A stretch of DNA of 64,000 bases from contig OZ024743.1 of NCBI GenBank assembly GCA_964016885.1, positions 233,244,001 through 233,308,000 on the forward strand, in the 5' to 3' direction. Every line of letters starts with the position of its first letter. The stretch's first letter is position 1. The translations under genes and the position numbers were made by a program. This stretch comes from Eledone cirrhosa. Lineage: Eukaryota. Under the pieces are notes generated by a model that was not told the origin of the DNA, made no database searches, and was given only the letters and a program-made list of their open reading frames with translations. Of this stretch, positions 3,001 to 60,365 are shown piece after piece.

Positions 3001-5985
3001 AGTAGCGTGGCGTGTTGTACTGTAGTGTGGTGTGTTGTACTGTAGCGTGGCGTATTGTACAGTAGCCTGGCGTGTTGTACTGTAGTGTGGTGTACTGTAG
3101 CGTGGCGTATTGTACAGTAGCGTGGCATGTTGTATCTGTAGTGTGGTGTGTTGCACTGTAGTGTGGTGTGTTGTTCTGTGCTGTAGCGTGGTGTGTGGTA
3201 TAGTAGCTTGGTGTGTTGTACAGTAGTGTGGCGTATTGTACAGTAGCGTGGTGTGTTGTACAGTAGCGTGGTGTGTTGTACAGTAGCATGGTGTGTTGTA
3301 CAGTAGCATGGTGTGTTGTAGAGTAGTGTGGTCTGTTGTAGAGTAGCGTGGTGTGTTGTAGAGTAGCGTGGTGTGTTGTAGAGTAGCGTGGTGTGTTGTA
3401 GAGTAGCGTGGTGTGTTGTAGAGTAGCGTGGTGTGTTGTAGAGTAGCGTGGTGTGTTGTAGAGTAGCGTGGTGTGTTGTAGAGTAGCGTGGTGTGTTGTA
3501 CTGTAGTGTGTTGTGTTGTACTGTAGTGTGGTGTGTTGTACAGTAGTGTGGTGGGGTGTACAGTAGTATGGTGTGTTGTACAATAGTGTGGTGTGTTGTA
3601 CTGTAGAGTGGTGTGTTGTACTGTAGCGTGGCGTATTGTACAGTAGCGTGGCATGTTGTATCTGTAGTGTGGTGTGTTATACTGTAGCGTGGTGTGTTGT
3701 ACTGTAGCGTGGTGTGTTGTACAGTAGCGTGGCGTGTTGTACTGTAGTGTGGTGTGTTGTACTGTAGTGTGGTGTGTTGTACTGTAGCGTGGCGTATTGT
3801 ACAGTAGCGTGGCATGTTGTATCTGTAGTGTGGTGTGTTATACTGTAGTGTGGTGTGTTGTTCTGTGCTGTAGCGTGGTGTGTGGTATAGTAGCTTGGTG
3901 TGTTGTACAGTAGTGTGGCGTATTGTACAGTAGCATGGTGTGTTGTACAGTAGCGTGGTGTGTTGTAGGGTAGCGTGGTGTGTTGTAGAGTAGCGTGGTG
4001 TGATGTACAGTAGTGTGGTGTGTTGTACTGTAGCGTGGTGTGTTGTACTGTAGTGTGGTGTGTTGTACAGTAGCGTGGTGTGTTGTACTGCAGTGTGGTG
4101 TGTTGTACAGTAGCATGGTGTGTTGTACCGTAGCGTGGTGTGTTGTACTGTAGTGTGGTGTGTTGTGTTGTACTTTTGTGTTGTGTGTTGTACTGTGCTG
4201 TAGCGTGGTGTGTTGTACTGTAGCATGGTGCATTGTACTGTAGCGTGGTGTATTGTACAGTAGCGTGGTGTATTGTACAGTAGCGTGGTGTATTGTACAG
4301 TAGCGCGGTGTGTTATACTGTAATGTGGTGTGTTGTACCATGCTGTAGTGTGGTGTGATTTGGTGCAGTGTACTGTGGTGTGTTGTACTGTAGTGTTGTG
4401 TGTTGTAGAGTAGCGTGGTGTGTTGTACAGTAGCCTGGTGTGTTGTATAGTAGCGTGGTGTGTTGTGCTGTAGCGTGGTGTGTTGTGCTGTAGCGTGGTG
4501 TGTTGTACAGTAGCGTGGCGTGTTGTACAGTAGCGTGGCGTGTTGTACAGTAGCGTGTTGTACAGTAGCGTGTCGTGTTGTACTGTAGCGTGGTGTGTTG
4601 TACAGTAGCGTGGTGTGTTGTGTTGTAGCGTGGTGTGTTGTACTGTAGCGTGGTGTGTTGTACAGTAGTGTGGCGTGTTGTGCTGTAGCGTGGTGTGTTG
4701 TACTGTAGCGTGGTGTGTTGTGCTGTAGTGTGATGTGTTGTACAGTAGCATGGTGTGTTGTACAGTAACGTGGTGTGTTGTTCTGTAGCGTGGTGTGTTG
4801 TACAGTAGCGCAGTGTGTTGTACAGTAGCTTGGTCCGTTGCACTGTAGCGTGGTCCGTTGCACTGTAGCGTGGTCCGTTGCACTGTAGCGTGGTGTATTG
4901 TACAGTAGCGCGGTGTGTTGTACAGTAGCGCGGTGTGTTGTACAGTAGCGCGGTGTGTTGTACAGTAGCGCGGTGTGTTGTACAGTAGCGCGGTGTGTTG
5001 TACAGTAGCGCGGTGTGTTGTGCAGTAGCGCGGTGTGTTGTACAGTAGCGCGGTGTGTTGTACAGTAGCGCGGTGTGTTGTACAGTAGCGTGGTGTGTTG
5101 TACTGTAGCGTGGTGAGTTGTACAGTAGCGTGGTGTGTTGTGCAGTAGCGTGGTGTGTTGTACAGTAGCGTGGTGTGTTATACAGTAGCGTGGTCTGTTG
5201 TGCAGTAGCGTGGTGTGTTATACAGTAGCGTGGTCTGTTGTACAGTAGCGTGGTGAGTTGTACAGTAGGGTGGTGTGTTGTGCAGTAGCGTGGTGTGTTG
5301 TGCAGTAGCGTGGTGTGTTGTGCAGTAGCGTGGTGTGTTGTGCAGTAGCGTGGTGTGTTGTACAGTAGCGTGGTGTGTTATACAGTAGCGTGGTTTGTTG
5401 TGCAGTAGCGTGGTGTGTTATACAGTAGCGTGGTCTGTTGTACAGTAGCGTGGTGAGTTGTACAGTAGGGTGGTGTGTTGTGCAGTAGCGTGGTGTGTTG
5501 TGCAGTAGCGTGGTGTGTTGTACAGTAGCGTGGTGTGTTTTACAGTAGCGTGGTGTGTTTTACAGTAGCGTGGTGTGTTGTACAGTAGCGTGGTGTGTTG
5601 TACAGTAGCGTGGTGTGTTGTACAGTAGCGTGGTGTGTTGTACAGTAGCGTGGTGTGTTGTACAGTAGCGTGGTGTGTTGTACAGTAGCGTGGTGTGTTG
5701 TACAGTAGCGTGGTGTGTTGTACAGTAGCGTGGTGTGTTGTACAGTAGCGTGGTGTGTTGTACAGTAGCGTGGTGTGTTGTACTGTAACGTAGTGTCTTG
5801 CACTGTAGTGTAGTGTGTTGTACTGTAGTGTAGTGTGTTGTTCTGTAGTGTAGTGTGTTGTTCTGTAGTGTGGTGTGTTGTTCTGTAGTGTGATGTGATG
5901 TGATGCAGTGTACTGTAGTCTTGTATGCTGTGCTGTGCCATAGTAGGCTGTAGTGCGGTGTGCTGTTTTATGGTATGTTATGGTG
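1..5985. repeat. 20-bp minisatellite (consensus ~GTGTTGTACAGTAGCGTGGT) with kb-scale higher-order duplications; runs off the window edge
   Basis: Continuous 20-nt periodicity; variant strings recur, e.g. 1-~1050 is echoed at ~2115-3250. The HTT/YNTP ORFs are artefacts of this repeat. Confidence 0.95.
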
Positions 5986-9081: not shown

Positions 9082-12000
9082 TCATCATCATCATCATCAT
9101 CAACGTTTAACGTCCGTGTTCCACGCTTGCATGGGTTTGGACGGGGGTAGTCCCACTTGAGGCAAGAGTGATTGTCTTGCTCGCATAGGACTGTCTGGCA
9201 GGTTTTCTACAGTTGGATGCCCTTCCTAACACCAACCACATTTACAGTGTGGGTCTGGGAGGTTTTTACCGTGTTGCCTACACGGCCACATTACAGCGTG
9301 GACTGTGTGTTTTTTTGTCGTGACACCTACACGATCTCATTTGTTTCGGCCTCGATGGCGCGGCACCAACATAACTTTACATAGAACGGGGTGGTGTGGA
9401 TGGGGTGGGGGTGGTGGTGGTGGGACGGGGTGTATTTTGTTAGAGATGCCTACTGGCTGGAGTAGGTTTTACTATATATTTAGGTAAGGCGGGTCTTCTC
9501 TGTTACTGAGTACCGCCAAAGGTCTCGGTCCAGTGACATTGTCTTGGAGAAGTGTAAGTGTGTGATGTCGGAGTTTATCAGCTCGTCCCAGGTTTTTCTA
9601 GGTCTGCCTATTCCGTGACTACCGTCTATCTTTATTGCCCTGCACTTTGTTATACAGCTATCGACTTTCATGCGCATCACGTGTCCATACCAACGTAGCC
9701 TTCTCTCGAGTAAACAACATCTGATCCCTCTTATCTCTAATTTTTTCCTTAGTTCGTTTATGCTTTGCCGTTCACGTATATTACTGTTACACATCCAGCG
9801 GAGCATGCAAGCTTCGTTCCTCTCTAGTCTGCGTATATCCTCTGCACACAATGCCCAGGTCTCACTGCCATGCAGCATTGCTGTTCGTATGCAGGCATCG
9901 TACAACCTGCCTTTCATTTTTAGGGAGAACCCTTTAGCAGCTAATAGTGGTATAAGCTCTCTGAACTTTTTCCAACCAGTTCTGACTCTAGCTACAGTAC
10001 TTTCAGAGCACCCTCCCCCACTGCTGATTTTATCGCCCAGGTAACGGAAGCTGTCCACTATTTCTATAGAACCCTCTGCGCAATTGAAAGAGCTAGTATT
10101 TTGTGGGCACTTGCTGCTACTTATTGCACCAGAGCACCGGCCACATGTAAAATCTATGTTCTTAGTTAGCTTACCTGTGATCCCACTACATCTTTTATGC
10201 ACCCATACTTTGCATTTAGGACATAAAATGGAGTTTCTACCTACGCCTTTCCTACACACCGAGCACGACCATTTCCCAGAAGGGACCGCCGCCTTGTTTT
10301 CTTTCCTACAAACTAGTACTTTGGTCTTAGCCAGGTTAATTTTAAGTCCTTTTGACTCTAGGCCGTGCTTCCATGTTTGGAATTTCTTCTCTAGCTCGGC
10401 CATTGATTCCGCTATGAGTGTCAGGTCGTCTGCGTATAGGAGTTCCCATGGGCAGCCTGTCTTGAACTCCTCTGTTATAGCCTGAAGGGCAATAATAAAT
10501 AGTAGTGGGCTGAGAACAGAGCCCTGATGGACGCCAACTTTTACGCTAAACTCTTCACTATATTCGTTGTTAATTCTAACCTTGCTGACTGTTTCTTTAT
10601 ACATGGCTTGTATAGCCCTCACAAGACATTCGTCAACGCCTAGTTTTCTAAGAGCCCACCAGATAATGGAGCGGGGGACTCTGTCGAAGGCTTTCTCCAA
10701 GTCGACAAAAGCTAAGTAGAGGGGTTTACCTTTAGCTAGGTACTTCTCCTGTAGTTGTCGTACTATGAAAAGAGCGTCTGTGGTACTTTTGCCTGACACA
10801 AACCCGAACTGCATTTCATCTAGGTCAATTCTCTCTCTGATTAGTTGCGCTATTACTTTTTCCGTGACCTTCATGACCTGGTCGATTAATTTAATGCCTC
10901 TATAGTTACTCCTATCTAGGGCGTCTCCTTTACCCTTATAACAGTTAACGATGATGCTGCTATGCCAGTCCTTCGGAACAACCCCATTCTGTACGACTTG
11001 GTTAACTATGCGGGTGACCATGGTGTGTCCCACCGTGCCAGATGCCTTCAGCATCTCAGCAACTATTTCCGAAGGCCCAGCCGCCTTACCCGTCTTCATA
11101 TCCTTGATTGCCTTACTTATTATACTCCCCTCGACTAACACTGCTGGTCCCTCTATTGGGTCGATATGGGGGAGACTGTCTTTCTCCCATTTATTCTCCT
11201 CATTTAGTAGCCTTTCATAGTGACACTTCCAAGCTACCTTCTTATCAGCGTCGGTGATGGCAAGTGTGCCATCGTCGTTTAGTACACACTTCTCCCCGAC
11301 AATATCACGGTTTTCCTTGACGCATTGCCTAGCAATCCTGAACACCTCACGTTTTTGGTCATCGCGTTGTAGAACATGCTTGAACTTTCTTTCCTCAGCT
11401 TCCCTTCTTGCTAAGTACACTTGTCTCCTAGCTTCCCTCCTGGCCACTTGATAGTCTTCTCTACTTCCCCCATCCCGCCATACTTTCCAAGCCTGCTTTT
11501 TGGCCTTAATTGACCCCTCCACCTTACTGTTCCACCACCATGTTACTCTCCTCCTGCCTACAGGCCTGCTCCAGCCACAGACTTCGTCTGTCGCCAACAG
11601 CAGGTTTGCTTTCAGAAATTCCCACTCTCCCTCTATATTGTCCGACTCTAAATGTTCTTCCTTACTGTCGAAAGCATCAAGTAATATGCTTTGAAATTTA
11701 TTCCTGGCTGTGGGGTCCTTTAGCTTCCATATTTTTCTCCTGAGGATAGTCCTCTTCTGCTGTCGAGTACGTCTCGTCCTGACTATGAGGTCGCTAATTA
11801 TCAGTCTATGTTGGGAGGTGCATTCTTCATGGGGGAGGGATTTAGTGTTTACAACAGACACTCTGTCACGTCTTCTGGTAAGGATATAATCTACCTGGCT
11901 TGTGTGTTCCCCGGATCTATAGGTGATCAGGTGATTGTCACGTTTTTTGAAGTTAGTGTTACAGATAGTTAGGTTATTTGCATCACAGAATTCCAGGATT

Positions 12001-13066
12001 CTGGAGCCTTCCTCATTTCTAGTACCAAACCCATAGCCTTCATGGATTTCGTCGTAGCCGTCACAATGTTGTCCAACGTGACCATTTAGGTCGCCTGCGA
12101 TAATTATATAGTCACTGTCGGATATTTGGGAGGTAGTTAGCATCAGTGTCTCATAGAGTCTGTCTTTTATAGTGCCGGGCAGTCCGGATTGGGGTGCGTA
12201 CGCAGATATTACTGTCACCGTAGTTCTATTGAGGACAAGTCGTATTTTAATTATTCTGTCGTTCACTCTATTTACGTCTATTATCTTATCTGCCCACTTT
12301 TCTGCTACCATGATTCCTACTCCACCCAGCCCATCGTCGTTTCCCACCCAGAAAAGCTTATAACATCGTTTTTTACCCTCAATGAACCTAGCAGACCCAC
12401 CCCTCCACCTGGTCTCTTGAATACAACAAACATCGACCTCCTTACGTTCAAGCATTTCTACAACCTCGTTAGCGCGACCCTTTAGGGTGCCTACATTTAT
12501 GGTGCCAACTCTGAAATTTTGGATTGCGTTTGGGGGTTGGGGGCGGTCGGGGGCGGGGGGCGATGGGGTTATGTTAGCCGTCCGCGGTCGAAACAATGAG
12601 GAGTGCTCGCATTCTCGTCCAAGAGGTGAATTTGTCTTTATCTTTGGCATTGTCGCTTGAGCGTCCAGATTTTTCTCTCTCTCTCTCCTCCACTCTCCAG
12701 GATTCCGCAGTCCATCCATCCATCATATATCGAAAGGCAACCAGGCAAGCGATAGTATAGGCCTCTGGCTTCTGATTGGTCCGCGTAATAATACTGGTGA
12801 TGCGTGGGGGCTCTGTTTTATGATTGGTCCACGTAATAGCAATGGTGGTGCGTGGGGATGGGAGGGAGGGGAGTTGGGTAGCTAGATAGAAGGTAATGAT
12901 TGAATGGGGTCCTTGCATTTAACAAGCGATTAACAAAAATACAAAATTTGTTCTGTTCAATACGACCAAAAACTTTCGTATTTAACAATTAATAAAAACA
13001 AAAAATGTAGTTTGTTTTAGCGATAGATTGGCTATTTGGACTTGATACGAAATATGGATTGTTTTG
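9078..13066 (-). mobile_element. Full-length RTE-clade LINE (family 1)
   Basis: Single intact ORF, ~400-nt 3' UTR, (GAT)n tail at ~9078, (TA)n on both flanks; the 5' boundary is approximate. Confidence 0.92.
9480..12719 (-). CDS. RTE LINE ORF, 1079 aa: APE endonuclease, reverse transcriptase and PHD-like Zn finger
   Basis: APE motifs (GTINVGTL, IQETRW, AGDLNGHVG, SQVDYIL, SQHRL); RT motifs (FVDLEKAFD, GVHQGSVLSP, LYADD); RTE-type C-terminus RRLRWYGHVMR...GRPRKTW. Confidence 0.95.
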   Translation of the reverse strand: MDGLRNPGEWRREREKNLDAQATMPKIKTNSPLGRECEHSSLFRPRTANITPSPPAPDRPQPPNAIQNFRVGTINVGTLKGRANEVVEMLERKEVDVCCIQETRWRGGSARFIEGKKRCYKLFWVGNDDGLGGVGIMVAEKWADKIIDVNRVNDRIIKIRLVLNRTTVTVISAYAPQSGLPGTIKDRLYETLMLTTSQISDSDYIIIAGDLNGHVGQHCDGYDEIHEGYGFGTRNEEGSRILEFCDANNLTICNTNFKKRDNHLITYRSGEHTSQVDYILTRRRDRVSVVNTKSLPHEECTSQHRLIISDLIVRTRRTRQQKRTILRRKIWKLKDPTARNKFQSILLDAFDSKEEHLESDNIEGEWEFLKANLLLATDEVCGWSRPVGRRRVTWWWNSKVEGSIKAKKQAWKVWRDGGSREDYQVARREARRQVYLARREAEERKFKHVLQRDDQKREVFRIARQCVKENRDIVGEKCVLNDDGTLAITDADKKVAWKCHYERLLNEENKWEKDSLPHIDPIEGPAVLVEGSIISKAIKDMKTGKAAGPSEIVAEMLKASGTVGHTMVTRIVNQVVQNGVVPKDWHSSIIVNCYKGKGDALDRSNYRGIKLIDQVMKVTEKVIAQLIRERIDLDEMQFGFVSGKSTTDALFIVRQLQEKYLAKGKPLYLAFVDLEKAFDRVPRSIIWWALRKLGVDECLVRAIQAMYKETVSKVRINNEYSEEFSVKVGVHQGSVLSPLLFIIALQAITEEFKTGCPWELLYADDLTLIAESMAELEKKFQTWKHGLESKGLKINLAKTKVLVCRKENKAAVPSGKWSCSVCRKGVGRNSILCPKCKVWVHKRCSGITGKLTKNIDFTCGRCSGAISSSKCPQNTSSFNCAEGSIEIVDSFRYLGDKISSGGGCSESTVARVRTGWKKFRELIPLLAAKGFSLKMKGRLYDACIRTAMLHGSETWALCAEDIRRLERNEACMLRWMCNSNIRERQSINELRKKLEIRGIRCCLLERRLRWYGHVMRMKVDSCITKCRAIKIDGSHGIGRPRKTWDELINSDITHLHFSKTMSLDRDLWRYSVTEKTRLT

Positions 13067-13259: not shown

Positions 13260-13440
13260 ACAAAGAAAGTGTGGTAAGAAACCAGGTGGACCATAACGCA
13301 CCAGAGTACTCGATACTTAGGGAAGTAGGGTGGGTAATAGGAAAAGAGTCAGGACCCTGATGGCTAAGCTCTGGCCGTTTTGACAGCTAGCAGTCAAAAC
13401 GGCCGGAGCTCAGATGTCGGGGTCCTGACTCTTTTCCTAT
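13260..13440. mobile_element. Small hairpin-plus-tail element, family copy 2 (inverted relative to copy 1)
   Basis: Tail caccagagtactc.atacttaggg is the reverse complement of 8713-8740; terminal hairpin 13337-13440. Confidence 0.7.
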
Positions 13441-13474
13441 ATATATATATATAAGAAAGGCAATATATATATAT

Positions 13475-15517
13475 ATAAGTAAGGCAATCAAGGATATGAA
13501 GACGGGTAAGGTGGCTGGGCCTTCGGAAATAGTTGCTGAGATGCTGAAGGCATCTGGCACGGTGGGACACACCATGGTCACCCGCATAGTTAACCAAGTC
13601 GTACAGAATGGGGTTGTTCCGAAGGACTGGCATAGCAGCATCATCGTTAACTGTTATAAGGGTAAAGGAGACGCCCTAGATAGGAGTAACTATAGAGGCA
13701 TTAAATTAATCGACCAGGTCATGAAGGTCACGGAAAAAGTAATAGCGCAACTAATCAGAGAGAGAATTGACCTAGATGAAATGCAGTTCGGGTTTGTGTC
13801 AGGCAAAAGTACCACAGACGCTCTTTTCATAGTACGACAACTACAGGAGAAGTACCTAGCTAAAGGTAAACCCCTCTACTTAGCTTTTGTCGACTTGGAG
13901 AAAGCCTTCGACAGAGTCCCCCGCTCCATTATCTGGTGGGCTCTTAGAAAACTAGGCGTTGACGAATGGCTTGTGAGGGCTATACAAGCCATGTATAAAG
14001 AAACAGTCAGCAAGGTTAGAATTAACAACGAATATAGTGAAGAGTTTAGCATAAAAGTTGGCGTCCATCAGGGCTCTGTTCTCAGCCCCCTACTATTTAT
14101 TATTGCCCTTCAGGCTATAACAGAGGAGTTCAAGACCGGCTGCCCATGGGAACTCCTATAAGCAGACGACCTGACACTCACAGCGGAATCAATGGCCGAG
14201 CTAGAGAAGAAATTCCAAACATGGAAGCACGGCCTAGAGTCAAAAGGACTTAAAATTAACCTGGCTAAGACCAAAGTTCTAGTTTGTAGGAAAGAAAACA
14301 AGGCGGCGGTCCCTTCTGGGAAATGGTCGTGCTCGGTGTGTAGGAAAGGCGTAGGTAGAAACTCGATTTTATGTCCTAAATGCAAAGTATGGGTGCATAA
14401 AAGATGTAGTGGGATCACAGGTAAGCTAATTAAGAACATAGATTTTACATGTGGCCGGTGTTCTGGTGCAATAAGTAGCAGCAAGTGCCCACAAAATACT
14501 AGCTCTTTCAATTGCGCAGAGGGTTCTATAGAAATAGTGGACAGCTTCCGTTACCTGGGCGATAAAATCAGCAGTAGGGGAGGGTGCTCTGAAAGTACAG
14601 TAGCTAGAGTCAGAACTGGTTGGAAAAAGTTCAGAGAGCTTATACCACTATTAGCTGCTAAAGGGTTCTCCCTAAAAATGAAAGGCAGGTTGTACGATGC
14701 CTGCATACGAACAGCAATGTTGCATGGCAGTGAGACCTGGGCATTGTGTGCAGAGGATATACGCAGACTAGAGAGGAACGAAGCTTGCATGCTCCGCTGG
14801 ATGTGTAACAGTAATATACGTGAACGGCAAAGCATAAACGAACTAAGGAAAAAATTAGAAATAAGAGGGATCAGATGTTGTTTACTCGAGAGAAGGCTAC
14901 GTTGGTATGGTCACGTGATGCGCATGAAAGTCGATAGCTGTATAACAAAGTGCAGGGCAATAAAGATAGACGGTAGCCACGGAATAGGCAGACCTAGAAA
15001 AACCTGGGACGAGCTGATAAACTCCGACCTCACACACACCTCTCCAAGACAATGTCACTGGACCGAGACCTTTGGCGGTACTCAGTAACAGAGAAGACCC
15101 GCCTTACCTAAATATATAGTAAAACCTACTCCAACCAGTAGGCATCTCTAACAAAATACACCCCGTCCCACCACCCCCACCCCCACCCCCACCCCATCCA
15201 CACCACCCCGTTCTATGTAAAGTTATGTTGGTGCCGCGCCATCCAGGCCGAAACAAATGAGATCGTGTAGGTGTCACGACAAAAAAACACAGTCCACGCT
15301 GTAATGTGGCCGTGTAGGCAACACAGTAAAAACCTCCCAGACCCACACTGTAAATGTGGTTGGTGTTAGGAAGGGCATCCAACTGTAGAAAACCTGCCAG
15401 ACAGTCCTATGCGAGCAAGACAATCACTCTTGCCTCAAGTGGGACTACCCCCGTCCAAACCCATGCAAGCGTGGAACACGGACGTTAAACGTTGATGATG
15501 ATGATGATGATGATGAT
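13475..15517 (+). mobile_element. 5'-truncated, near-identical copy of RTE family 1 (pseudogenised)
   Basis: ORFs 13496-14161 and 14192-15088; TAA at 14159-14161 replaces the Y of YADD; small C-terminal frameshift; (GAT)n tail. Confidence 0.93.
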
Positions 15518-22699: not shown

Positions 22700-22878
22700 C
22701 TGTAGTAAACGATCTGAGGCAACTGTCCACGCATGTGGTTAGTACCATTACTGCTGAGGGAGCAGGATGTAAATGTAAAGGTGGTACCATCAGGACATTT
22801 CACTCGGCTTAAACCTCCATCACCATTCAGGGTACGTGGACCATGGTTCCTTAAAAGGACAGCATATTTGACCCCTTC
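22700..22878 (-). CDS. MYCBP2: MYCBP2 exon, end of PHR2 (EGVKYAVLLRNHGPRTLNGDGG...SSNGTNHMRGQLPQIVYY)
   Basis: tag/gtcagt boundaries, 179 nt, PHR signature NGT...GQ.PQ..Y. Confidence 0.93.
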
Positions 22879-24089: not shown

Positions 24090-24156
24090 GTGTATGTATA
24101 TATATATATATATACATACATACATACATATACATACAGAATAATAAAGATAGACA

Positions 24157-24223
<67 letters not shown>

Positions 24224-25169
24224 ACATATACATATATATACATATACATATATATACATATACATATACATATATATACATATACATATACATATACATA
24301 CATATACATATATATACATATATATACATATACATATATATACATATACATACATATACATATATATATACATATACATATATATACATATACATACATA
24401 TACATATATATACATATACATATATATACATATATATACATATACATATATATACATATACATATATATACATATACATATATATACATATACATATATA
24501 TACATATATATACATATACATATATATACATATACATATATATACATATACATATATATACATATACATATATATACATATACATATATATACATATACA
24601 TATATATACATATACATATATATACATATATATACATATATATATACATATATATATACATATATATATACATATACATATATATACATATACATATATA
24701 TACATACATATACATATATATGCATATACATATATATACATATACATATATATACATACATATACATATATATACATATACATACATATATATACATATA
24801 TACATATATATATATACATATATACATATATATACATATATATATATACATATATATATATACATATATATATATACATATATATATATACATATATATA
24901 TATACATATATATATATACATATATATATATACATATATATATATACATATATATATATACATATATATATATACATATATACATATACATATATATATA
25001 TACATATATACATATATATATATACATATACATATATATATATACATATATATACATATATATATATACATACATATATATACATATATATATATACATA
25101 CATATACATATATATATATATACATACATATATATACATATATATATATACATACATATATACATATAC

Positions 25170-25200
<31 letters not shown>

Positions 25201-25244
25201 CATATATACATATATATATACATATATACATATATATATATATA
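24090..25244. repeat. (TA)n/(CATA)n compound microsatellite
   Basis: Direct inspection. Confidence 0.95.
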
Positions 25245-25368
25245 TGAATATAGACATAGAATATTCGAAAATATTCTGTATGTTTATAATAAACATTTTG
25301 AAGACCTAATCGCTATAGAATAGAATACGTCACGTATTACAATTAGATTCTCGATAAAAGCAAGGGAA

Positions 25369-25411
25369 GTAATCTACGCGTTTCATTCTCGTTAGAAATC
25401 ATCAGGACTAC
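25369..25411 (-). ncRNA. Minimal type I hammerhead ribozyme, inverted arm (also at 25679-25721 and 25989-26031)
   Basis: Exact reverse complement of the plus-strand motif. Confidence 0.82.
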
Positions 25412-26253
25412 ATATCCAGTGCTTTTATCGAGAATGACACAGCTAGAGACTTATAGAATACTTAGCTGTGTACAGGAACTGGTTTGAAAGAGCGGTTGCC
25501 GGTCCGGCAGAAATTAGAAATCGGAATAAATGCTCTGAAATAGCGATATATATGTGAATATAGACATAGAATATTCGAAAATATTCTGTATGTTTATAAT
25601 AAACATTTTGAAGACCTAATCGCTATAGAATAGAATACGTCACGTATTACAATTAGATTCTCGATAAAAGCAAGGGAAGTAATCTACGCGTTTCATTCTC
25701 GTTAGAAATCATCAGGACTACATATCCAGTGCTTTTATCGAGAATGACACAGCTAGAGACTTATAGAATACTTAGCTGTGTACAGGAACTGGTTTGAAAG
25801 AGCGGTTGCCGGTCCGGCAGAAATTAGAAATCGGAATAAATGCTCTGAAATAGCGATATATATGTGAATATAGACATAGAATATTCGAAAATATTCTGTA
25901 TGTTTATAATAAACATTTTGAAGACCTAATCGCTATAGAATAGAATACGTCACGTATTACAATTAGATTCTCGATAAAAGCAAGGGAAGTAATCTACGCG
26001 TTTCATTCTCGTTAGAAATCATCAGGACTACATATCCAGTGCTTTTTAGGTCTTCAAAATGTTTATTATAAACATACAGAATATTTTCGAATATTCTATG
26101 TCTATATTCACATATATATCGCTATTTCAGAGCATTTATTCCGATTTCTAATTTCTGCCGGACCGGCAACCGCTCTTTCAAACCAGTTCCTGTACACAGC
26201 TAAGTATTCTATAAGTCTCTAGCTGTGTCATTCTCGATAAAAGCACTGGATAT

Positions 26254-26296
26254 GTAGTCCTGATGATTTCTAACGAGAATGAAACGCGTAGATTAC
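26254..26296 (+). ncRNA. Minimal type I hammerhead ribozyme, first of 22 plus-strand copies spaced 310 bp apart
   Basis: GUAGUC-CUGAUGA-U(UUCU AACG AGAA)U-GAAA-C GC G-UA^GAUUAC: core boxes, 6-bp stem I, stem II, palindromic ACGCGU helix III, GUA cleavage triplet. Confidence 0.85.
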
Positions 26297-29200
26297 TTCC
26301 CTTGCTTTTATCGAGAATCTAATTGTAATACGTGACGTATTCTATTCTATAGCGATTAGGTCTTCAAAATGTTTATTATAAACATACAGAATATTTTCGA
26401 ATATTCTATGTCTATATTCACATATATATCGCTATTTCAGAGCATTTATTCCGATTTCTAATTTCTGCCGGACCGGCAACCGCTCTTTCAAACCAGTTCC
26501 TGTACACAGCTAAGTATTCTATAAGTCTCTAGCTGTGTCATTCTCGATAAAAGCACTGGATATGTAGTCCTGATGATTTCTAACGAGAATGAAACGCGTA
26601 GATTACTTCCCTTGCTTTTATCGAGAATCTAATTGTAATACGTGACGTATTCTATTCTATAGCGATTAGGTCTTCAAAATGTTTATTATAAACATACAGA
26701 ATATTTTCGAATATTCTATGTCTATATTCACATATATATCGCTATTTCAGAGCATTTATTCCGATTTCTAATTTCTGCCGGACCGGCAACCGCTCTTTCA
26801 AACCAGTTCCTGTACACAGCTAAGTATTCTATAAGTCTCTAGCTGTGTCATTCTCGATAAAAGCACTGGATATGTAGTCCTGATGATTTCTAACGAGAAT
26901 GAAACGCGTAGATTACTTCCCTTGCTTTTATCGAGAATCTAATTGTAATACGTGACGTATTCTATTCTATAGCGATTAGGTCTTCAAAATGTTTATTATA
27001 AACATACAGAATATTTTCGAATATTCTATGTCTATATTCACATATATATCGCTATTTCAGAGCATTTATTCCGATTTCTAATTTCTGCCGGACCGGCAAC
27101 CGCTCTTTCAAACCAGTTCCTGTACACAGCTAAGTATTCTATAAGTCTCTAGCTGTGTCATTCTCGATAAAAGCACTGGATATGTAGTCCTGATGATTTC
27201 TAACGAGAATGAAACGCGTAGATTACTTCCCTTGCTTTTATCGAGAATCTAATTGTAATACGTGACGTATTCTATTCTATAGCGATTAGGTCTTCAAAAT
27301 GTTTATTATAAACATACAGAATATTTTCGAATATTCTATGTCTATATTCACATATATATCGCTATTTCAGAGCATTTATTCCGATTTCTAATTTCTGCCG
27401 GACCGGCAACCGCTCTTTCAAACCAGTTCCTGTACACAGCTAAGTATTCTATAAGTCTCTAGCTGTGTCATTCTCGATAAAAGCACTGGATATGTAGTCC
27501 TGATGATTTCTAACGAGAATGAAACGCGTAGATTACTTCCCTTGCTTTTATCGAGAATCTAATTGTAATACGTGACGTATTCTATTCTATAGCGATTAGG
27601 TCTTCAAAATGTTTATTATAAACATACAGAATATTTTCGAATATTCTATGTCTATATTCACATATATATCGCTATTTCAGAGCATTTATTCCGATTTCTA
27701 ATTTCTGCCGGACCGGCAACCGCTCTTTCAAACCAGTTCCTGTACACAGCTAAGTATTCTATAAGTCTCTAGCTGTGTCATTCTCGATAAAAGCACTGGA
27801 TATGTAGTCCTGATGATTTCTAACGAGAATGAAACGCGTAGATTACTTCCCTTGCTTTTATCGAGAATCTAATTGTAATACGTGACGTATTCTATTCTAT
27901 AGCGATTAGGTCTTCAAAATGTTTATTATAAACATACAGAATATTTTCGAATATTCTATGTCTATATTCACATATATATCGCTATTTCAGAGCATTTATT
28001 CCGATTTCTAATTTCTGCCGGACCGGCAACCGCTCTTTCAAACCAGTTCCTGTACACAGCTAAGTATTCTATAAGTCTCTAGCTGTGTCATTCTCGATAA
28101 AAGCACTGGATATGTAGTCCTGATGATTTCTAACGAGAATGAAACGCGTAGATTACTTCCCTTGCTTTTATCGAGAATCTAATTGTAATACGTGACGTAT
28201 TCTATTCTATAGCGATTAGGTCTTCAAAATGTTTATTATAAACATACAGAATATTTTCGAATATTCTATGTCTATATTCACATATATATCGCTATTTCAG
28301 AGCATTTATTCCGATTTCTAATTTCTGCCGGACCGGCAACCGCTCTTTCAAACCAGTTCCTGTACACAGCTAAGTATTCTATAAGTCTCTAGCTGTGTCA
28401 TTCTCGATAAAAGCACTGGATATGTAGTCCTGATGATTTCTAACGAGAATGAAACGCGTAGATTACTTCCCTTGCTTTTATCGAGAATCTAATTGTAATA
28501 CGTGACGTATTCTATTCTATAGCGATTAGGTCTTCAAAATGTTTATTATAAACATACAGAATATTTTCGAATATTCTATGTCTATATTCACATATATATC
28601 GCTATTTCAGAGCATTTATTCCGATTTCTAATTTCTGCCGGACCGGCAACCGCTCTTTCAAACCAGTTCCTGTACACAGCTAAGTATTCTATAAGTCTCT
28701 AGCTGTGTCATTCTCGATAAAAGCACTGGATATGTAGTCCTGATGATTTCTAACGAGAATGAAACGCGTAGATTACTTCCCTTGCTTTTATCGAGAATCT
28801 AATTGTAATACGTGACGTATTCTATTCTATAGCGATTAGGTCTTCAAAATGTTTATTATAAACATACAGAATATTTTCGAATATTCTATGTCTATATTCA
28901 CATATATATCGCTATTTCAGAGCATTTATTCCGATTTCTAATTTCTGCCGGACCGGCAACCGCTCTTTCAAACCAGTTCCTGTACACAGCTAAGTATTCT
29001 ATAAGTCTCTAGCTGTGTCATTCTCGATAAAAGCACTGGATATGTAGTCCTGATGATTTCTAACGAGAATGAAACGCGTAGATTACTTCCCTTGCTTTTA
29101 TCGAGAATCTAATTGTAATACGTGACGTATTCTATTCTATAGCGATTAGGTCTTCAAAATGTTTATTATAAACATACAGAATATTTTCGAATATTCTATG

Positions 29201-32200
29201 TCTATATTCACATATATATCGCTATTTCAGAGCATTTATTCCGATTTCTAATTTCTGCCGGACCGGCAACCGCTCTTTCAAACCAGTTCCTGTACACAGC
29301 TAAGTATTCTATAAGTCTCTAGCTGTGTCATTCTCGATAAAAGCACTGGATATGTAGTCCTGATGATTTCTAACGAGAATGAAACGCGTAGATTACTTCC
29401 CTTGCTTTTATCGAGAATCTAATTGTAATACGTGACGTATTCTATTCTATAGCGATTAGGTCTTCAAAATGTTTATTATAAACATACAGAATATTTTCGA
29501 ATATTCTATGTCTATATTCACATATATATCGCTATTTCAGAGCATTTATTCCGATTTCTAATTTCTGCCGGACCGGCAACCGCTCTTTCAAACCAGTTCC
29601 TGTACACAGCTAAGTATTCTATAAGTCTCTAGCTGTGTCATTCTCGATAAAAGCACTGGATATGTAGTCCTGATGATTTCTAACGAGAATGAAACGCGTA
29701 GATTACTTCCCTTGCTTTTATCGAGAATCTAATTGTAATACGTGACGTATTCTATTCTATAGCGATTAGGTCTTCAAAATGTTTATTATAAACATACAGA
29801 ATATTTTCGAATATTCTATGTCTATATTCACATATATATCGCTATTTCAGAGCATTTATTCCGATTTCTAATTTCTGCCGGACCGGCAACCGCTCTTTCA
29901 AACCAGTTCCTGTACACAGCTAAGTATTCTATAAGTCTCTAGCTGTGTCATTCTCGATAAAAGCACTGGATATGTAGTCCTGATGATTTCTAACGAGAAT
30001 GAAACGCGTAGATTACTTCCCTTGCTTTTATCGAGAATCTAATTGTAATACGTGACGTATTCTATTCTATAGCGATTAGGTCTTCAAAATGTTTATTATA
30101 AACATACAGAATATTTTCGAATATTCTATGTCTATATTCACATATATATCGCTATTTCAGAGCATTTATTCCGATTTCTAATTTCTGCCGGACCGGCAAC
30201 CGCTCTTTCAAACCAGTTCCTGTACACAGCTAAGTATTCTATAAGTCTCTAGCTGTGTCATTCTCGATAAAAGCACTGGATATGTAGTCCTGATGATTTC
30301 TAACGAGAATGAAACGCGTAGATTACTTCCCTTGCTTTTATCGAGAATCTAATTGTAATACGTGACGTATTCTATTCTATAGCGATTAGGTCTTCAAAAT
30401 GTTTATTATAAACATACAGAATATTTTCGAATATTCTATGTCTATATTCACATATATATCGCTATTTCAGAGCATTTATTCCGATTTCTAATTTCTGCCG
30501 GACCGGCAACCGCTCTTTCAAACCAGTTCCTGTACACAGCTAAGTATTCTATAAGTCTCTAGCTGTGTCATTCTCGATAAAAGCACTGGATATGTAGTCT
30601 TGATGATTTCTAACGAGAATGAAACGCGTAGATTACTTCCCTTGCTTTTATCGAGAATCTAATTGTAATACGTGACGTATTCTATTCTATAGCGATTAGG
30701 TCTTCAAAATGTTTATTATAAACATACAGAATATTTTCGAATATTCTATGTCTATATTCACATATATATCGCTATTTCAGAGCATTTATTCCGATTTCTA
30801 ATTTCTGCCGGACCGGCAACCGCTCTTTCAAACCAGTTCCTGTACACAGCTAAGTATTCTATAAGTCTCTAGCTGTGTCATTCTCGATAAAAGCACTGGA
30901 TATGTAGTCCTGATGATTTCTAACGAGAATGAAACGCGTAGATTACTTCCCTTGCTTTTATCGAGAATCTAATTGTAATACGTGACGTATTCTATTCTAT
31001 AGCGATTAGGTCTTCAAAATGTTTATTATAAACATACAGAATATTTTCGAATATTCTATGTCTATATTCACATATATATCGCTATTTCAGAGCATTTATT
31101 CCGATTTCTAATTTCTGCCGGACCGGCAACCGCTCTTTCAAACCAGTTCCTGTACACAGCTAAGTATTCTATAAGTCTCTAGCTGTGTCATTCTCGATAA
31201 AAGCACTGGATATGTAGTCCTGATGATTTCTAACGAGAATGAAACGCGTAGATTACTTCCCTTGCTTTTATCGAGAATCTAATTGTAATACGTGACGTAT
31301 TCTATTCTATAGCGATTAGGTCTTCAAAATGTTTATTATAAACATACAGAATATTTTCGAATATTCTATGTCTATATTCACATATATATCGCTATTTCAG
31401 AGCATTTATTCCGATTTCTAATTTCTGCCGGACCGGCAACCGCTCTTTCAAACCAGTTCCTGTACACAGCTAAGTATTCTATAAGTCTCTAGCTGTGTCA
31501 TTCTCGATAAAAGCACTGGATATGTAGTCCTGATGATTTCTAACGAGAATGAAACGCGTAGATTACTTCCCTTGCTTTTATCGAGAATCTAATTGTAATA
31601 CGTGACGTATTCTATTCTATAGCGATTAGGTCTTCAAAATGTTTATTATAAACATACAGAATATTTTCGAATATTCTATGTCTATATTCACATATATATC
31701 GCTATTTCAGAGCATTTATTCCGATTTCTAATTTCTGCCGGACCGGCAACCGCTCTTTCAAACCAGTTCCTGTACACAGCTAAGTATTCTATAAGTCTCT
31801 AGCTGTGTCATTCTCGATAAAAGCACTGGATATGTAGTCCTGATGATTTCTAACGAGAATGAAACGCGTAGATTACTTCCCTTGCTTTTATCGAGAATCT
31901 AATTGTAATACGTGACGTATTCTATTCTATAGCGATTAGGTCTTCAAAATGTTTATTATAAACATACAGAATATTTTCGAATATTCTATGTCTATATTCA
32001 CATATATATCGCTATTTCAGAGCATTTATTCCGATTTCTAATTTCTGCCGGACCGGCAACCGCTCTTTCAAACCAGTTCCTGTACACAGCTAAGTATTCT
32101 ATAAGTCTCTAGCTGTGTCATTCTCGATAAAAGCACTGGATATGTAGTCCTGATGATTTCTAACGAGAATGAAACGCGTAGATTACTTCCCTTGCTTTTA

Positions 32201-32965
32201 TCGAGAATCTAATTGTAATACGTGACGTATTCTATTCTATAGCGATTAGGTCTTCAAAATGTTTATTATAAACATACAGAATATTTTCGAATATTCTATG
32301 TCTATATTCACATATATATCGCTATTTCAGAGCATTTATTCCGATTTCTAATTTCTGCCGGACCGGCAACCGCTCTTTCAAACCAGTTCCTGTACACAGC
32401 TAAGTATTCTATAAGTCTCTAGCTGTGTCATTCTCGATAAAAGCACTGGATATGTAGTCCTGATGATTTCTAACGAGAATGAAACGCGTAGATTACTTCC
32501 CTTGCTTTTATCGAGAATCTAATTGTAATACGTGACGTATTCTATTCTATAGCGATTAGGTCTTCAAAATGTTTATTATAAACATACAGAATATTTTCGA
32601 ATATTCTATGTCTATATTCACATATATATCGCTATTTCAGAGCATTTATTCCGATTTCTAATTTCTGCCGGACCGGCAACCGCTCTTTCAAACCAGTTCC
32701 TGTACACAGCTAAGTATTCTATAAGTCTCTAGCTGTGTCATTCTCGATAAAAGCACTGGGTATGTAGTCCTGATGATTTCTAACGAGAATGAAACGCGTA
32801 GATTACTTCCCTTGCTTTTATCGAGAATCTAATTGTAATACGTGACGTATTCTATTCTATAGCGATTAGGTCTTCAAAATGTTTATTATAAACATACAGA
32901 ATATTTTCGAATATTCTATGTCTATATTCACATATATATCGCTATTTCAGAGCATTTATTCCGAT

Positions 32966-35094
<2,129 letters not shown>

Positions 35095-35341
35095 GTAGAT
35101 AAATCTACCAAGAGTTTACGGTAGTGTCCAATCCGTATGAAGAACTCAATGTATTCCGGATATCATGGAAAGAAGAGATGTAATGAAAAATCACTTTCGG
35201 TGAAAGATAAACGGTATACAGAGTCAAGATAAAATATTAAACAAATAATGAATAAAACAATGAAACAGTTCCTTATATTAAACAAAAAAAGTTCATTATT
35301 TAACGATCGTTTCTAGGATATATATGTGTTAGAATTGGCAT

Positions 35342-35902
35342 GCATATTCAACAACAAATAACATAAAACAAAATATAAGTGCCTATAATGCATATAAATG
35401 TAAGAAAACCATAAGTATACCACCAGTACATCAAATTAACCATAATATCTCCTCAAATACAGAATTAACGAAAGGTTGTAACTGTAGAAACAAAGCAAAC
35501 TGCCCATTAAAAGGGAATTGTCTTGTTAACAACATAGTCTATAAATGTAATGTTAAAACTAAAGATTCTATTTGCTCATATATAGGAGCTACCTCTAACA
35601 ATTTTAAGACAAGGTTTAATACCCACAAGCATAGTTTTAAAAATGCCGCACTGGCTAATACAACATCTCTAGCAGAAAAAATCAATAGTTATAAAAATAA
35701 GAATATAGAATATGATTTGACCTGGAGTGTGCTCAAAAGAGCCACCCCTTATCAAAATAATAGAAATGAATGTAGATTATGTTCCCAAGAACTATTTGAA
35801 ATAATGAAATCTAAGGATATCCTATTAAATAAACGACAGGAATTAATTATATCGTGTAATCATAAACTAAAAAAAACATTTAAATATTATAAACCTAATT
35901 AA
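35342..35902 (+). pseudogene. Penelope-like ORF C-terminus: Cys-rich linker and GIY-YIG endonuclease
   Basis: Open frame AYSTTNNIKQNISAYN...GCNCRNKANCPLKGNCLVNNIVYKC...SYIGATSNNFKTRFNTHKHSF...CRLCSQE...LLNKRQELIISCNH; in frame with ORF 35717-35902. Confidence 0.88.
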
Positions 35903-44446: not shown

Positions 44447-44659
44447 ATCATCCAAGAGCTCCAACTCATATTCATACTGCCCTCCAACTACACTGCCTCC
44501 GTACACGTAGACACCAGCAATTAGGATGCCTGGCCGGTCAACACTGAAGGCCACAGCATCAGGACTTCCATTGCCTGTATTCCAATATGCTCCGTGGATG
44601 GTTCGAGTGAAACGGTTAGGAGTGACCAACAAAGGCCTAGAGGTACTGGCCAGATCAAG
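44447..44659 (-). CDS. MYCBP2: MYCBP2 exon, start of PHR2 (LDLASTSRPLLVTPNRFTRTIHGAYWNTGNGSPDAVAFSVDRPGILIAG...YEYELELLDD)
   Basis: cag/gtaagt boundaries, 213 nt; WNTGNGSPDA is the PHR2 signature. Confidence 0.95.
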
Positions 44660-45584: not shown

Positions 45585-45912
45585 GGAGGCACATGGCTTA
45601 GTGGTTAGAGCATTTGCCTTGCAATCGAAAGGTTGTGAGTTCAATTCTCAGACCGGGTGATGTGTTGTTTCCTTGAGCAAGACACTTTATTTCACATTGC
45701 TCCAGTTTACTCAGCTGTAGAAATGAGATGATAGGGACTGGGGTCTATATCATTCCACTACAAAGTGGTCGTGGAGGTGCCACGGCAAAAAAGCACCCAG
45801 CACTCACTGTAAATGAGGTTGGTGTTAGGAAGGGCATCCAGCTGTAGAAATCAAACCAGAATCAGTTCCCGTCCCACCCTTGCAAGCAGGGAAAAAGCGG
45901 ACGTAAAATGAA
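45585..45912 (+). mobile_element. Full-length tRNA-derived SINE with RTE family-2 tail
   Basis: A/B boxes, ccttgagcaagacactt core, tail nearly identical to the 3' end of the LINE at 62892-62947. Confidence 0.87.
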
Positions 45913-46072
45913 ATGAATGAAATGAATGATCCATGGCTGTTAGACATATGGAATTCAAATTCTGATAAAATCCTTTATAATTCCTGGTGGCGATTGAAAT
46001 CCACACCTCTATGTAGGTGTCATTGCTTCAATCAGCTTAACTATGTCAGAGAGGAAACTATAATTTACTTAC

Positions 46073-46495
46073 CTCAGATCCAGTGGCTGATGCTGCCAGC
46101 TCACTAATCAGACATGACAGCAAGGCACATGTGTTTGTCACCAATATTTGGGGATAACATGTTGGCTCTTTGTTAAGGGCCTGACGGATTGGCACGGTGG
46201 CTATCAGCAGCAGTCTATCGAGAACCTCCTTGAATGACGTGTGGCCACTGCCAATGCCCTCCACCTCTGTGCGATAGGTCATGTGGTCAACAAGGATCGG
46301 AAACCTGTGTGACTCAGCTAGGCGTGCTGCACTGTTGGTGTTGTCATCGATACTAATGGACTGGCGACGGAGTATCTCTTCTGTTTCTGGCTCACAGTTG
46401 ATGGGCATTATATTGGTCAGTTTGATGGTTGGGTGGGTCAGGGCTTCCATGATTGCAGCCAGAAGACGACCATACCCATCCATGTTGCTCATTCC
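46073..46495 (-). CDS. MYCBP2: MYCBP2 exon (GMSNMDGYGRLLAAIMEALTHPTIKLT...ELAASATGSE)
   Basis: cag/gtaagt boundaries, 423 nt, phase 0/0. Confidence 0.92.
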
Positions 46496-46574
46496 CTGAG
46501 GAAACCAAGTGAAAGAAAGATAGATAGATAGACAATGAAAAAAAGAAAAGAAACAAAGAAACAAATGTGTGCAT

Positions 46575-51794: not shown

Positions 51795-52321
51795 CTGAAG
51801 AAGAAAAAAATAAAACACAAGTGATAAGCAGAAAATAGCTTTTTTCTTTGTAAAAAGAAAAAAAAAATAGAGGACAGATTTTCATTTTCATTTTTATATT
51901 TGGAAATCCCTTCCACCACACCTGATACACCGCCTCTCCAACTCATGCATACAAACATGAAAAGCTGAACATGCTCTATACCAGCTCTGCCACCACAACA
52001 GAAACCACTTAGGCCACTAGGTAAGATGGTTGTGCTGTCAACAAAAAGCACCCACACTATGCGAGACAGCAGTCATGCTGGTGACACAACAGAAATCCAC
52101 TCTGTAGACAATAAAACACCTAAGAAACTCTTAGGTGAGGTATAATTCATTTCAATTTCATAACATATAACAAACAATTATATTAGCTATAAAGATGGTA
52201 CCCTATGGATTACCACTGCCTGAAAACTAAAATTTCATTAAAAATACAAAATTGTTAACAAAATCATTTTTTTTTTAATGGGAGCTATAGAAAGAGTTAA
52301 TAGAAAGAAATTTCAGTAAAC

Positions 52322-56670: not shown

Positions 56671-60365
<3,695 letters not shown>

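Follow-up and report, generated by a model that had tools for sequence, protein, structure and literature searches.

The 64,000-nt stretch of the Eledone cirrhosa genome analyzed here (the window) carries two minus-strand exons of a gene with two PHR domains, which we take to be MYCBP2/Highwire, and since these exons flank a large tandem array, the array is intronic (Table 1). A further host exon at 46070-46498 was assigned by the PHR family search and gave no match by homologue search, Pfam, PDB or Atlas. TRF described the array as a 310-bp tandem repeat at 25236-26046 (2.6 copies) and 26046-32965 (22.3 copies), so the exact 310-bp period given in a preliminary description holds in both arms. 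Its 22 plus-strand and 3 minus-strand copies were likewise recovered, as the sequence GAAACGCGTAGATTAC occurs 22 times on the plus strand, three times on the minus strand and nowhere else in the window. That a hammerhead stands in every unit is correct as far as the motif is concerned, but not for all cores: the whole plus arm is one unit sequence save two sites, 30600 C>T and 32760 A>G, and the former turns core C3 of one unit into a U, which leaves 21/22 plus-strand cores and 24/25 cores in the window intact. In agreement with the preliminary description the unit holds no ORF, the longest stop-free stretch being 59 codons. Both flanks are (TA)n, and any target-site duplication is therefore masked; in metazoan non-LTR retrozymes such duplications, where present, exceed 4 bp.

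Table 1. Positions of the features discussed in the text, numbered from the first base of the window.
Feature	Position	Strand	Remarks
Host exon	22702..22878	-	PHR domain positions 92-151
Left (TA)n-rich target tract	24093..25245	no strand	
Inverted arm	25245..26046	-	2.6 units; inner end at unit position 259; outer (sense 3') end, the "short" one, in (TA)n and at unit position ~130
Main arm	26046..32965	+	22.3 units; from unit position 66 to the "tail" end at position 165 in (TA)n; start overlaps the inverted arm by 1 nt
First plus-strand type I hammerhead	26230..26318	+	
Stem I extension	26230-26245/26303-26318	+	16 bp
Stem I	26254-26259/26291-26296	+	
CUGAUGA box	26260-26266	+	
Stem II	26267-26280	+	U·U base, 4 bp, AACG loop
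GAAA	26281-26284	+	
Palindrome ACGCGU	26284-26289	+	predicted cut after 26290
One monomer, cut site to cut site	26291..26600	+	310 nt (predicted circle); 35% G+C, no ORF
C>T at core C3	30600	+	one unit; post-insertion change; ribozyme probably inactive
Last stretch of main arm	32931..32965	+	up to its tail end
Right (TA)n-rich target tract	32964..35094	no strand	
Host exon	44456..44617	-	PHR domain positions 1-51
PLE-W, 5'-truncated copy	58413..60150	-	in (TA)n; young PLE family; RT end, Cx4CxxC linker, GIY-YIG-like end, minimal hammerhead in 3' UTR

Several details of the proposed ribozyme could be corroborated: stem I GUAGUC/GAUUAC is real, pair 10.1-11.1 is indeed U·U, and the first base 3' of GUA is 26291, consistent with a cut after 26290+310n. 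A natural haplotype carries A at position 10.1. A perfect 16-bp helix, absent from the preliminary description, prolongs stem I past an internal loop. The hammerhead region folds with z = -5.7 (0/200 shuffles equally good), and for stem II the predicted circle gives a low pair probability (0.13-0.15). The 2-bp helix III suggested earlier had to be abandoned, as it would demand a 2-nt loop and the monomer allows at most an A-U pair closing CGCG. In the monomer circle the predicted pairing probability of helix III is 0.0, while that of a 6-bp ACGCGU duplex between two adjacent units is 0.70-0.77. A candidate dimer-type ribozyme is supported, its cleavage being predicted from the fold. Precedents exist in the axolotl, where helix III of HHR_Amex1 consists of one pair and a palindromic tetraloop, HHR_Amex2 features a basal U·U in helix II like the window motif, and cleavage of both improves in dimers (Cervera & de la Pena 2020, PMC7229834). 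The Rfam comparison by which the motif was to be recognized returned no hammerhead match at the gathering score or at E<=10, i.e., library models do not recognize it. A looser type I descriptor, not requiring stem II and the palindrome, matched 4/2,000 dinucleotide shuffles of the unit; the type I descriptor itself matched the plus strand and gave no hammerhead on the minus strand.

This strand restriction bears on the viroid-like reading raised in the preliminary description, by which the arrays would be endogenized copies of an autonomously replicating RNA. Size, strong folding of the unit (z = -4.1) and a dimer-type hammerhead do resemble viroid-like RNAs, and for mussel retrozymes the possibility of RNA-RNA replication has been discussed (PMC7229834). 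The predicted circle is, however, branched rather than rod-like, thousands of genomic DNA copies represent a sufficient source, and an older sister family in the same genome indicates long residence. With a hammerhead on the plus strand only, we regard this as the least credible of the alternatives considered here.

On the genome level, intact core plus stem II matches amounted to 17,812, with 0 in the reversed-sequence control. The hemocyanin of this genome is that of an octopod, in support of the cephalopod host given in the preliminary description; homologues of its transposons were uninformative on the taxon. The arrays are dispersed, as anticipated, and 98-100% identical, and they consist of pure units flanked by TA tracts with no LTR layout; their dispersal, private haplotypes and unique flanks also rule out an assembly artefact. 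The window array belongs to a family with thousands of young copies, a 310-base retrozyme bearing a hammerhead motif. Its length lies within the 150-450 bp of non-LTR retrozymes, its G+C content of 35% below their limit of 50%, it is non-coding, and it features the core, stems I and II and the short palindromic helix III of a type I hammerhead. Metazoan non-LTR retrozymes share the tandem units, the hammerhead type, the low G+C content, the missing ORF and the thousands of copies (PMC7229834). An ORF for RT plus GIY-YIG, as in an autonomous PLE, is lacking.

The class as such is consequently not novel, a point which the preliminary description had left unverified: Cervera & de la Pena (2020) described non-LTR retrozymes of coral, mussel and axolotl, and a recent preprint on PLE-derived retrozymes of vertebrates links them to PLEs (Li, Clavereau & Pollet 2026, bioRxiv 10.64898/2026.07.22.740005). 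The family itself is unrelated in sequence to the retrozymes of the 2020 paper, whose main text has no cephalopods and for which cleavage and circles were shown; both are predicted for the 310-bp family. The giant-squid genome paper gives 235 Rfam hammerhead-1 matches without analysis. In the literature covered we found no description of the 310-bp family or, for retrozymes, of its end pattern; cephalopod families may be listed in Repbase/Dfam, in subscription papers or in the supplementary files of PMC7229834 and the 2026 preprint.

The new part of the finding is the insertion anatomy. The arrays sit head-to-head in (TA)n, with outer ends at unit positions ~130 (short) and ~165 (tail). Among 17 clusters on C1, which were not selected for TA and also showed the (TA)n target, 12 were head-to-head, none was tail-to-tail, and all 12 head-to-head clusters carried one short and one tail end. 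Consistently, 52/52 outward-facing end pairs were short plus tail, 35 nt apart. Entering TA we counted 1,195 tail ends (control 0) and 1,436 short ends (control 9), in a search whose pattern included TA. Insertions have a median size of 7.7 units and reach 31 or more. The arms join at variable points, often through short homology, and the breaks at their 5' side spare no region of the unit and do not cluster at the cut site, with 3/132 inner breakpoints at a distance of up to 8 nt, against an expectation of 6.8. This layout, which did not appear in the preliminary description, is the most informative feature of the arrays. It is also missing from the main text of the 2020 paper, as are the two fixed end sites ("inverted" occurs 0 times; PMC7229834), and the terms "tail" and "head-to" occur 0 times in the text of the 2026 preprint, which covers 35 genomes and no mollusc.

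Mobilization by an RTE-like LINE through classical twin priming could be considered here, as an intact 1,080-aa endonuclease-RT frame of this type lies at 9480-12722 in the window. The 5' inversions of L1 with microhomology are known. In LINE twin priming, however, the outer end of the inverted arm is variable, whereas both outer ends of the retrozyme fall on fixed sites within the unit, separated by 35 nt, and lack a poly(A) or repeat tail, and a resident PLE has the same two-end pattern. The LINE explanation is therefore highly improbable.

The haplotypes of the arrays are informative on the template. We distinguished 25 array-wide haplotypes among 46 arrays, and a random pair of arrays matches with P = 0.084, while the two arms of one insertion agree in 35/37 arrays. 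Minority variants were confined to a single unit in 81/89 cases, and 100 single-unit variants stand against multi-unit variants in 8 arrays, i.e., the units diverge in a star-like manner. Mosaic arrays are L155, in which the outermost two units of each arm carry a second haplotype, and L172. Later expansion of short retro-insertions into satellites by unequal crossover or slippage would agree with the variants recurring within arms of L132, L134 and L188, which represent some post-insertion block duplication, and local amplification is favored in the 2026 preprint (bioRxiv 10.64898/2026.07.22.740005). Star-like divergence, the agreement of two opposed multimeric arms and the near-identity of dispersed arrays speak against it, and we consider it very unlikely as a general explanation. 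The sequence data favor one RNA template per insertion. Array-wide haplotypes in both arms combined with unbiased 5' breaks argue for rolling-circle copying of one circle, and the rolling-circle cDNA proposed in the preliminary description remains the best explanation of the concatemer, given array-wide haplotypes, shared arms and no stall at the cut site.

There is further a signal that selection acts on the ribozyme. Within the hammerhead domain, disruptive variants make up 2/15 of the array-wide changes and 17/28 of the later ones (Fisher p = 0.004); over the whole unit the same contrast (2/29 vs. 17/89) is not significant (p = 0.15). Paired stem cells were intact in 580/580 cases across 20 haplotypes. 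No double-sided pair change occurred among these 20 haplotypes, for which the shuffle control was uninformative. The sister family showed 3 pairs with double changes and a covariation of 0.126 vs. 0.078 shuffled, in rows chosen by the core pattern and related to one another.

Comparison with endonuclease-bearing (EN+) PLEs shows where the two-end layout has a counterpart. Neptune and Naiad elements feature an inverted 5' copy, a 30-40-bp tail at one end and a (TA)n bias (Craig et al. 2021, PMC8557442). The purified PLE Poseidon_Ac starts reverse transcription internally at two sites whose spacing equals the tail, on both DNA strands and at AT-rich cuts (Frangieh et al. 2024, PMC11167929). The retrozyme shares the inverted 5'-truncated copy, the one-sided tail of 30-40 nt, the AT-rich/(TA)n target and two internal RT start sites 3' of the hammerhead, which are putative in its case. 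It differs in the lack of an ORF, in forming pure concatemers and in a hammerhead that is canonical in size and has a long stem I, where PLEs carry the minimal type. The strict pairing of short and tail ends is unreported for EN+ PLEs in the main texts of these studies, and in vitro the start site showed no difference between strands (PMC11167929).

An active element with RT plus GIY-YIG and intact frames is present in the retrozyme's genome, and the PLE-W family, of which the window holds a copy, is a candidate helper. Other intact Neptune-type proteins belong to the L111 and L114 families. Its protein gave 103/103 scored matches at 100% identity and many open 1,217-aa frames, and the retrozyme-like two-end layout was seen in 5/5 head-to-head pairs, with a tail of 45-66 nt compared to 35 nt in the retrozyme. 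The end regions of both elements are no more similar than shuffles (144 and 138 of 500). Blastn and nhmmer with the unit and the sister family found no pLTR homology in 48 GIY-YIG loci taken from 10,595 candidates; matches in those loci were sister or other hammerhead repeats only. Twenty unpaired tail ends led to retrozyme arrays or short pieces, with no ORF in the fetched stretch, and the inspected part of 30 sister-family tail ends had none either. The link to PLEs comes from insertion anatomy in the 310-bp family, but from pLTR homology and co-occurrence in the vertebrate retrozymes, which also bear type I hammerheads in tandem and depend on PLEs as non-autonomous elements (Li, Clavereau & Pollet 2026). 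PLEs were called "a strong candidate" for moving retrozymes in 2020 (PMC7229834), and a review describes retrozyme repeats without a motif naming the helper. Rolling-circle copying of retrozyme RNA by PLEs was proposed, not shown, in the earlier papers considered; the copy ends described here point to such copying by PLEs.

We consider it probable that these young genome-wide non-LTR retrozymes travel on the enzymes of an endonuclease-bearing PLE, via one rolled RNA circle. End anatomy, haplotypes and the lack of an ORF also support the non-autonomous hammerhead retroelement proposed before. Arrays would be transcribed, and adjacent hammerheads would pair via ACGCGU, cut after GUA and free 310-nt monomers, as predicted from the fold; a lone monomer, unable to form helix III in the predicted fold, would remain uncut, as established for this motif type. 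Monomers could then be ligated into circles, as in other retrozymes. The RT-GIY-YIG protein of a PLE would cleave (TA)n DNA and start reverse transcription internally at unit positions ~130 and ~165, one per target end, and the RT would circle one template several times, yielding two antisense arms joined head-to-head at variable points. For the second arm, either twin priming on RNA or fold-back copying of the first cDNA may apply. Both routes seem to leave traces; near-symmetric junctions, a sign of fold-back, number 9/66 (p = 0.08, not significant).

The circle itself could be dispensable if a PLE inserted an uncleaved linear multimer, or a stem I-closed monomer with end-to-end RT jumps. 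The main substrate of Poseidon_Ac was uncleaved RNA, the hammerhead being dispensable in vitro (PMC11167929), and many retrozyme dimers fail to cleave, including 8/9 from Xenopus (bioRxiv 10.64898/2026.07.22.740005). The pattern of L155 would correspond to a mosaic linear template copied twice, and the lack of cut-site breakpoints fits as well. Yet 25 haplotypes in 46 arrays, each array-wide, require a one-unit bottleneck per insertion, 682/686 cut-site junctions match their own array cleanly with no added bases, and array-wide variants spare the ribozyme. A linear template is thus unlikely, though less so than the other alternatives, and copying of a circle remains our preferred reading.

Further observations concern expression. 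Six sequencing runs of unknown kind from four studies were listed for the unit, none of them recorded as RNA. Contigs from four of these runs contained the unit: X1 and X2 gave one 340-nt contig each, returning after 310 nt, X3 gave 503 contigs and X6 four. As tandem DNA yields identical-looking contigs, these runs carry no information on expression, on circles or on transfer to other organisms. By eye only, a possible Pol III A/B box was noted at unit positions 60-113; the sister family does not conserve it, and we make no claim for it. A sigma-70 promoter scan stayed at chance level and is irrelevant to animal DNA.

With 17,812 x 310 bp, about 5.5 Mb of candidate self-cleaving, perfectly inverted DNA was added to an octopod genome, where the older sister family indicates a long residence of such elements. 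More tentatively, and with slightly less than even confidence, we propose that one PLE complex engages both (TA)n cut ends at two points 35 nt apart on a single rolled RNA circle, with the haplotypes as per-insertion barcodes. This would be the first direct genomic proof of PLE trans retrotransposition of a circular RNA without a shared pLTR, and the second-strand step would be readable from some 2,000-3,000 recent events. The mover of animal retrozymes and the role of their circles are left open in the main texts of PMC7229834, the review and the 2026 preprint, and the mechanism behind inverted copies and tails of PLEs is described as only partly worked out (PMC8557442, PMC11167929). With thousands of recent, almost identical insertions that follow a strict rule for their ends, with per-insertion haplotypes and with intact PLE frames, both questions become testable.

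The preliminary description announced a two-orientation array of 310-bp units, which was recovered here (Table); its units are all alike save two substitutions, 30600 C>T, which falls on core position C3, and 32760 A>G. With the unit numbered from 26291, the first base past GUA, all parts of the proposed type I hammerhead are present: stem I, CUGAUGA and, following it, stem II with a basal U·U, GAAA and the palindrome ACGCGU. The U·U had rightly been flagged as a caveat and has a functional precedent in axolotl HHR_Amex2, a working hammerhead with U·U at stem II according to the accessible text of PMC7229834. The Rfam search recommended earlier detected no hammerhead in the unit; a looser type I descriptor matched it on the plus strand only, and matched no more than 4 of 2,000 shuffles. 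In fold predictions, a monomer circle leaves helix III unpaired (0.0) and pairs stem II only weakly (0.13–0.15); between neighbouring units, helix III forms over 6 bp with a pairing of 0.70–0.77.

The dispersed copies that the preliminary description had suggested looking for occur genome-wide. Throughout the 3.0 Gb searched, a 20-mer spanning the cut site matched 16,902 times and a 32-letter pattern of core and stem II 17,812 times, with 0 matches to either reversed control. When the first 100 matches to the 20-mer were grouped into 17 clusters and compared by BLAST, 12 clusters were head-to-head, one had a 33-bp inverted piece and four had a single orientation, one of them running into an N gap; a tail-to-tail layout was found in none of the 17. 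The 12 head-to-head clusters, the window and a further locus (L078) each have an outer end at unit 130–139 (short end) and another at 162–170 (tail end). Patterns for these ends followed by TA gave 1,436 (short; control 9) and 1,195 matches (tail; control 0). Among the first 100 short and 80 tail ends of the same stretch of one contig, neighbours at most 20 kb apart formed 52 outward-facing pairs (26 short-tail, 26 tail-short, 0 like-with-like) and six pairs that were not outward-facing. The simple head-to-head layout is seen in 66/82 loci, and 62 of 63 complete head-to-head loci carry one short and one tail end, a count that is not independent, 40 loci having been chosen via their ends. Arrays have a median of 7.7 units, and the tail arm is the longer one in 39/62. 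The 310-bp repeats form a genuine octopod family of retrozymes, non-autonomous hammerhead retroelements, of very recent age and with by extrapolation about 2,000–3,000 insertions. At L075, L077, L130 and L131, the arrays lie in the TA tract ending earlier insertions of Penelope-like elements (PLEs), a nested use of targets.

The end layout of the arrays is PLE anatomy. In the portion of Craig et al. (PMC8557442) at hand, PLE insertions show an inverted 5'-truncated copy, a 30–40-bp tail at one end and a (TA)n bias, and the 310-bp arrays are alike in all three. The available text of Frangieh et al. (PMC11167929) describes a purified PLE that cuts and extends both strands at AT-rich sites, with reverse transcription (RT) beginning at two internal sites whose spacing equals the tail. 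The genome carries several families with RT and C-terminal GIY-YIG. In PLE-W, a very young family (L219–L238) with a copy in the window, 103/103 scored matches (out of 41,872 candidates) are protein-identical; frames of 1,217 aa, with an Asn-rich stretch, are open in many copies, and 4,117-bp tandems occur. In the Atlas, PLE-W lies next to RT/GIY-YIG clusters (0.97), and Pfam gives only a weak RT match. All 5/5 head-to-head PLE-W pairs seen in (TA)n have one short and one tailed end, the tail of 45–66 nt stopping just before ATG. Similarity between the PLE-W end region and the unit was not above shuffles (144/500), and no sequence common to the unit and the sampled PLEs was found. The PLE-type ends make PLEs a well-supported helper class; the sampled sequences point to no single family. 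Several other PLE families with RT and GIY-YIG were seen (L111, L114, L117, L123); in the L114 family, the hammerhead likewise carries a U·U in stem II, and its helix III is the palindrome AGUACU.

Once arrays of too few units were set aside, a complete majority sequence was available for 46 arrays, which comprise 25 haplotypes (P = 0.084 that two random arrays agree); the arms agree in 35/37 arrays, and 81/89 minority variants are confined to a single unit. Since haplotypes are array-wide, arms nearly always alike and most minority variants limited to single units, each array began as a multimer derived from a single unit. Inner breakpoints lie within 8 nt of the cut site in 3/132 cases (6.8 expected), without pile-up and with a mildly non-uniform spread (KS p = 0.02), and 682/686 cut-site junctions match their own array. 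An uncleaved multimer as template would account for the absent pile-up and the matching junctions, but leaves the single-unit origin unexplained; a closed circle accounts for all three. Against this simple picture of a circle, L155 has two haplotypes in mirror order: the two outermost units of each arm are of one type, and the 17 units inside are of another. Rare variants common to both arms in L078, L134 and L146 look as if one arm had been copied from the other's cDNA, or as if conversion had followed, and L172 switches haplotype inside one arm, for which fold-back gives no account. With such mixed patterns, the second arm may have been primed on RNA (twin priming) or copied from the first cDNA (fold-back). 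Blocks were duplicated after insertion in L132, L134 and L188; in L188, of at least 31 units, two linked variants recur in 7/30 units, which is later satellite-like growth.

Array-wide variants in the hammerhead domain lie at N7, in loops or at 10.1, where U to A restores A-U, or are pairing-neutral. Disruptive variants there amount to 2/15 array-wide vs. 17/28 later ones (p = 0.004), a sign of selection on the ribozyme; the two array-wide cases each insert one base into stem I. When the unit is taken as a whole, the difference falls short of significance (p = 0.15). Across 20 haplotypes, stem cells are paired in 580/580 cases (slid controls 43–57%; shuffle control uninformative), and six pairs vary on one side, 0 on both. 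A sister family of greater age, with a 314-bp unit and 466 exact matches to its tail end, has unit 59–154 in common with the 310-bp family, and the same two-end, head-to-head layout. Its hammerhead differs in sequence; both partners have changed in 3 pairs, and covariation exceeds 500/500 shuffles in rows that are related and chosen by core pattern. Short inverted inserts in (TA)n at L116:1185, L120:8081-8197 and L121:3206-3318 hold another hammerhead, with stem II (UUUCU/AGAAU) as in the 310-bp family but with helix III complete. These loci also contain several more types of hammerhead.

The host genome is marked as octopod by its hemocyanin genes: each has seven beta-sandwich matches, seven units being an octopod trait, and one gene scores 203 bits against the octopus structure 1JS8, 172 and 167 bits against the squid structures 4YD9 and 6R83, and at most 96 bits per domain against all others. 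Because minus-strand PHR exons flank it on both sides, the array lies within an intron of a two-PHR gene, which we take to be MYCBP2/Highwire. In the host pre-mRNA (minus strand), the three inverted units in 25245-26857 would be hammerheads in sense orientation; pairing of the two arms there could also give a perfect duplex of ~800 bp, a possible substrate for intron cleavage or editing. The intact LINE frame is presumably RTE-like, the GIY-YIG-like fragment had no Pfam match, and the partial tRNA match is probably a SINE head.

Table. Features of the window, the repeat unit and the sister family.
Feature	Position	Strand	Remark
20-bp satellite	1-5901		294 copies
Endonuclease-RT-PHD LINE frame	9480-12722	-	intact, 1,080 aa
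Broken LINE copy	13391-15088	+	
Broken LINE copy	54716-55838		
Broken LINE copy	61049-62892		
PHR-domain exon	22702-22878	-	one side of array
PHR-domain exon	44456-44617	-	other side of array
Second PHR domain	52321-53511		same host gene
Inverted arm	25245-26046	-	2.6 units of 310 bp, between (TA)n tracts
Main arm	26046-32965	+	22.3 units of 310 bp, between (TA)n tracts
Stem I	unit 274-279/1-6	+	type I hammerhead
Stem I extension	unit 250-265/13-28	+	16 bp, type I hammerhead
CUGAUGA	unit 280-286	+	type I hammerhead
GIY-YIG-like fragment	35333-35902	+	other probable PLE, just right of array's TA tract
Partial tRNA match	45594-45651	+	barely above Rfam cut-off
PLE-W copy	58413-60150	-	5'-truncated
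Sister family	L070:3770-4110, L082:2435-2881, L189-L218		helix III ACAG-A-CUGU and variants

The defining features of metazoan non-LTR retrozymes that can be read from the sequence, as laid out in the accessible text of PMC7229834, are found in the 310-bp family, any target-site duplication being hidden by the (TA)n flanks; on sequence grounds the family would add an octopod member to an already known class. In the main texts searched, neither a description of this family nor these two-end marks in retrozymes were found. Dependence of retrozymes on PLEs was proposed in 2020 (PMC7229834, in the same text) and a 2026 preprint (bioRxiv 10.64898/2026.07.22.740005), the available part of which is without molluscs, makes the case for it on homology. 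The value of the family is mechanistic: with array ends held strictly to two sites and a barcode carried by each insertion, the model of PLE-driven rolling-circle insertion becomes testable.
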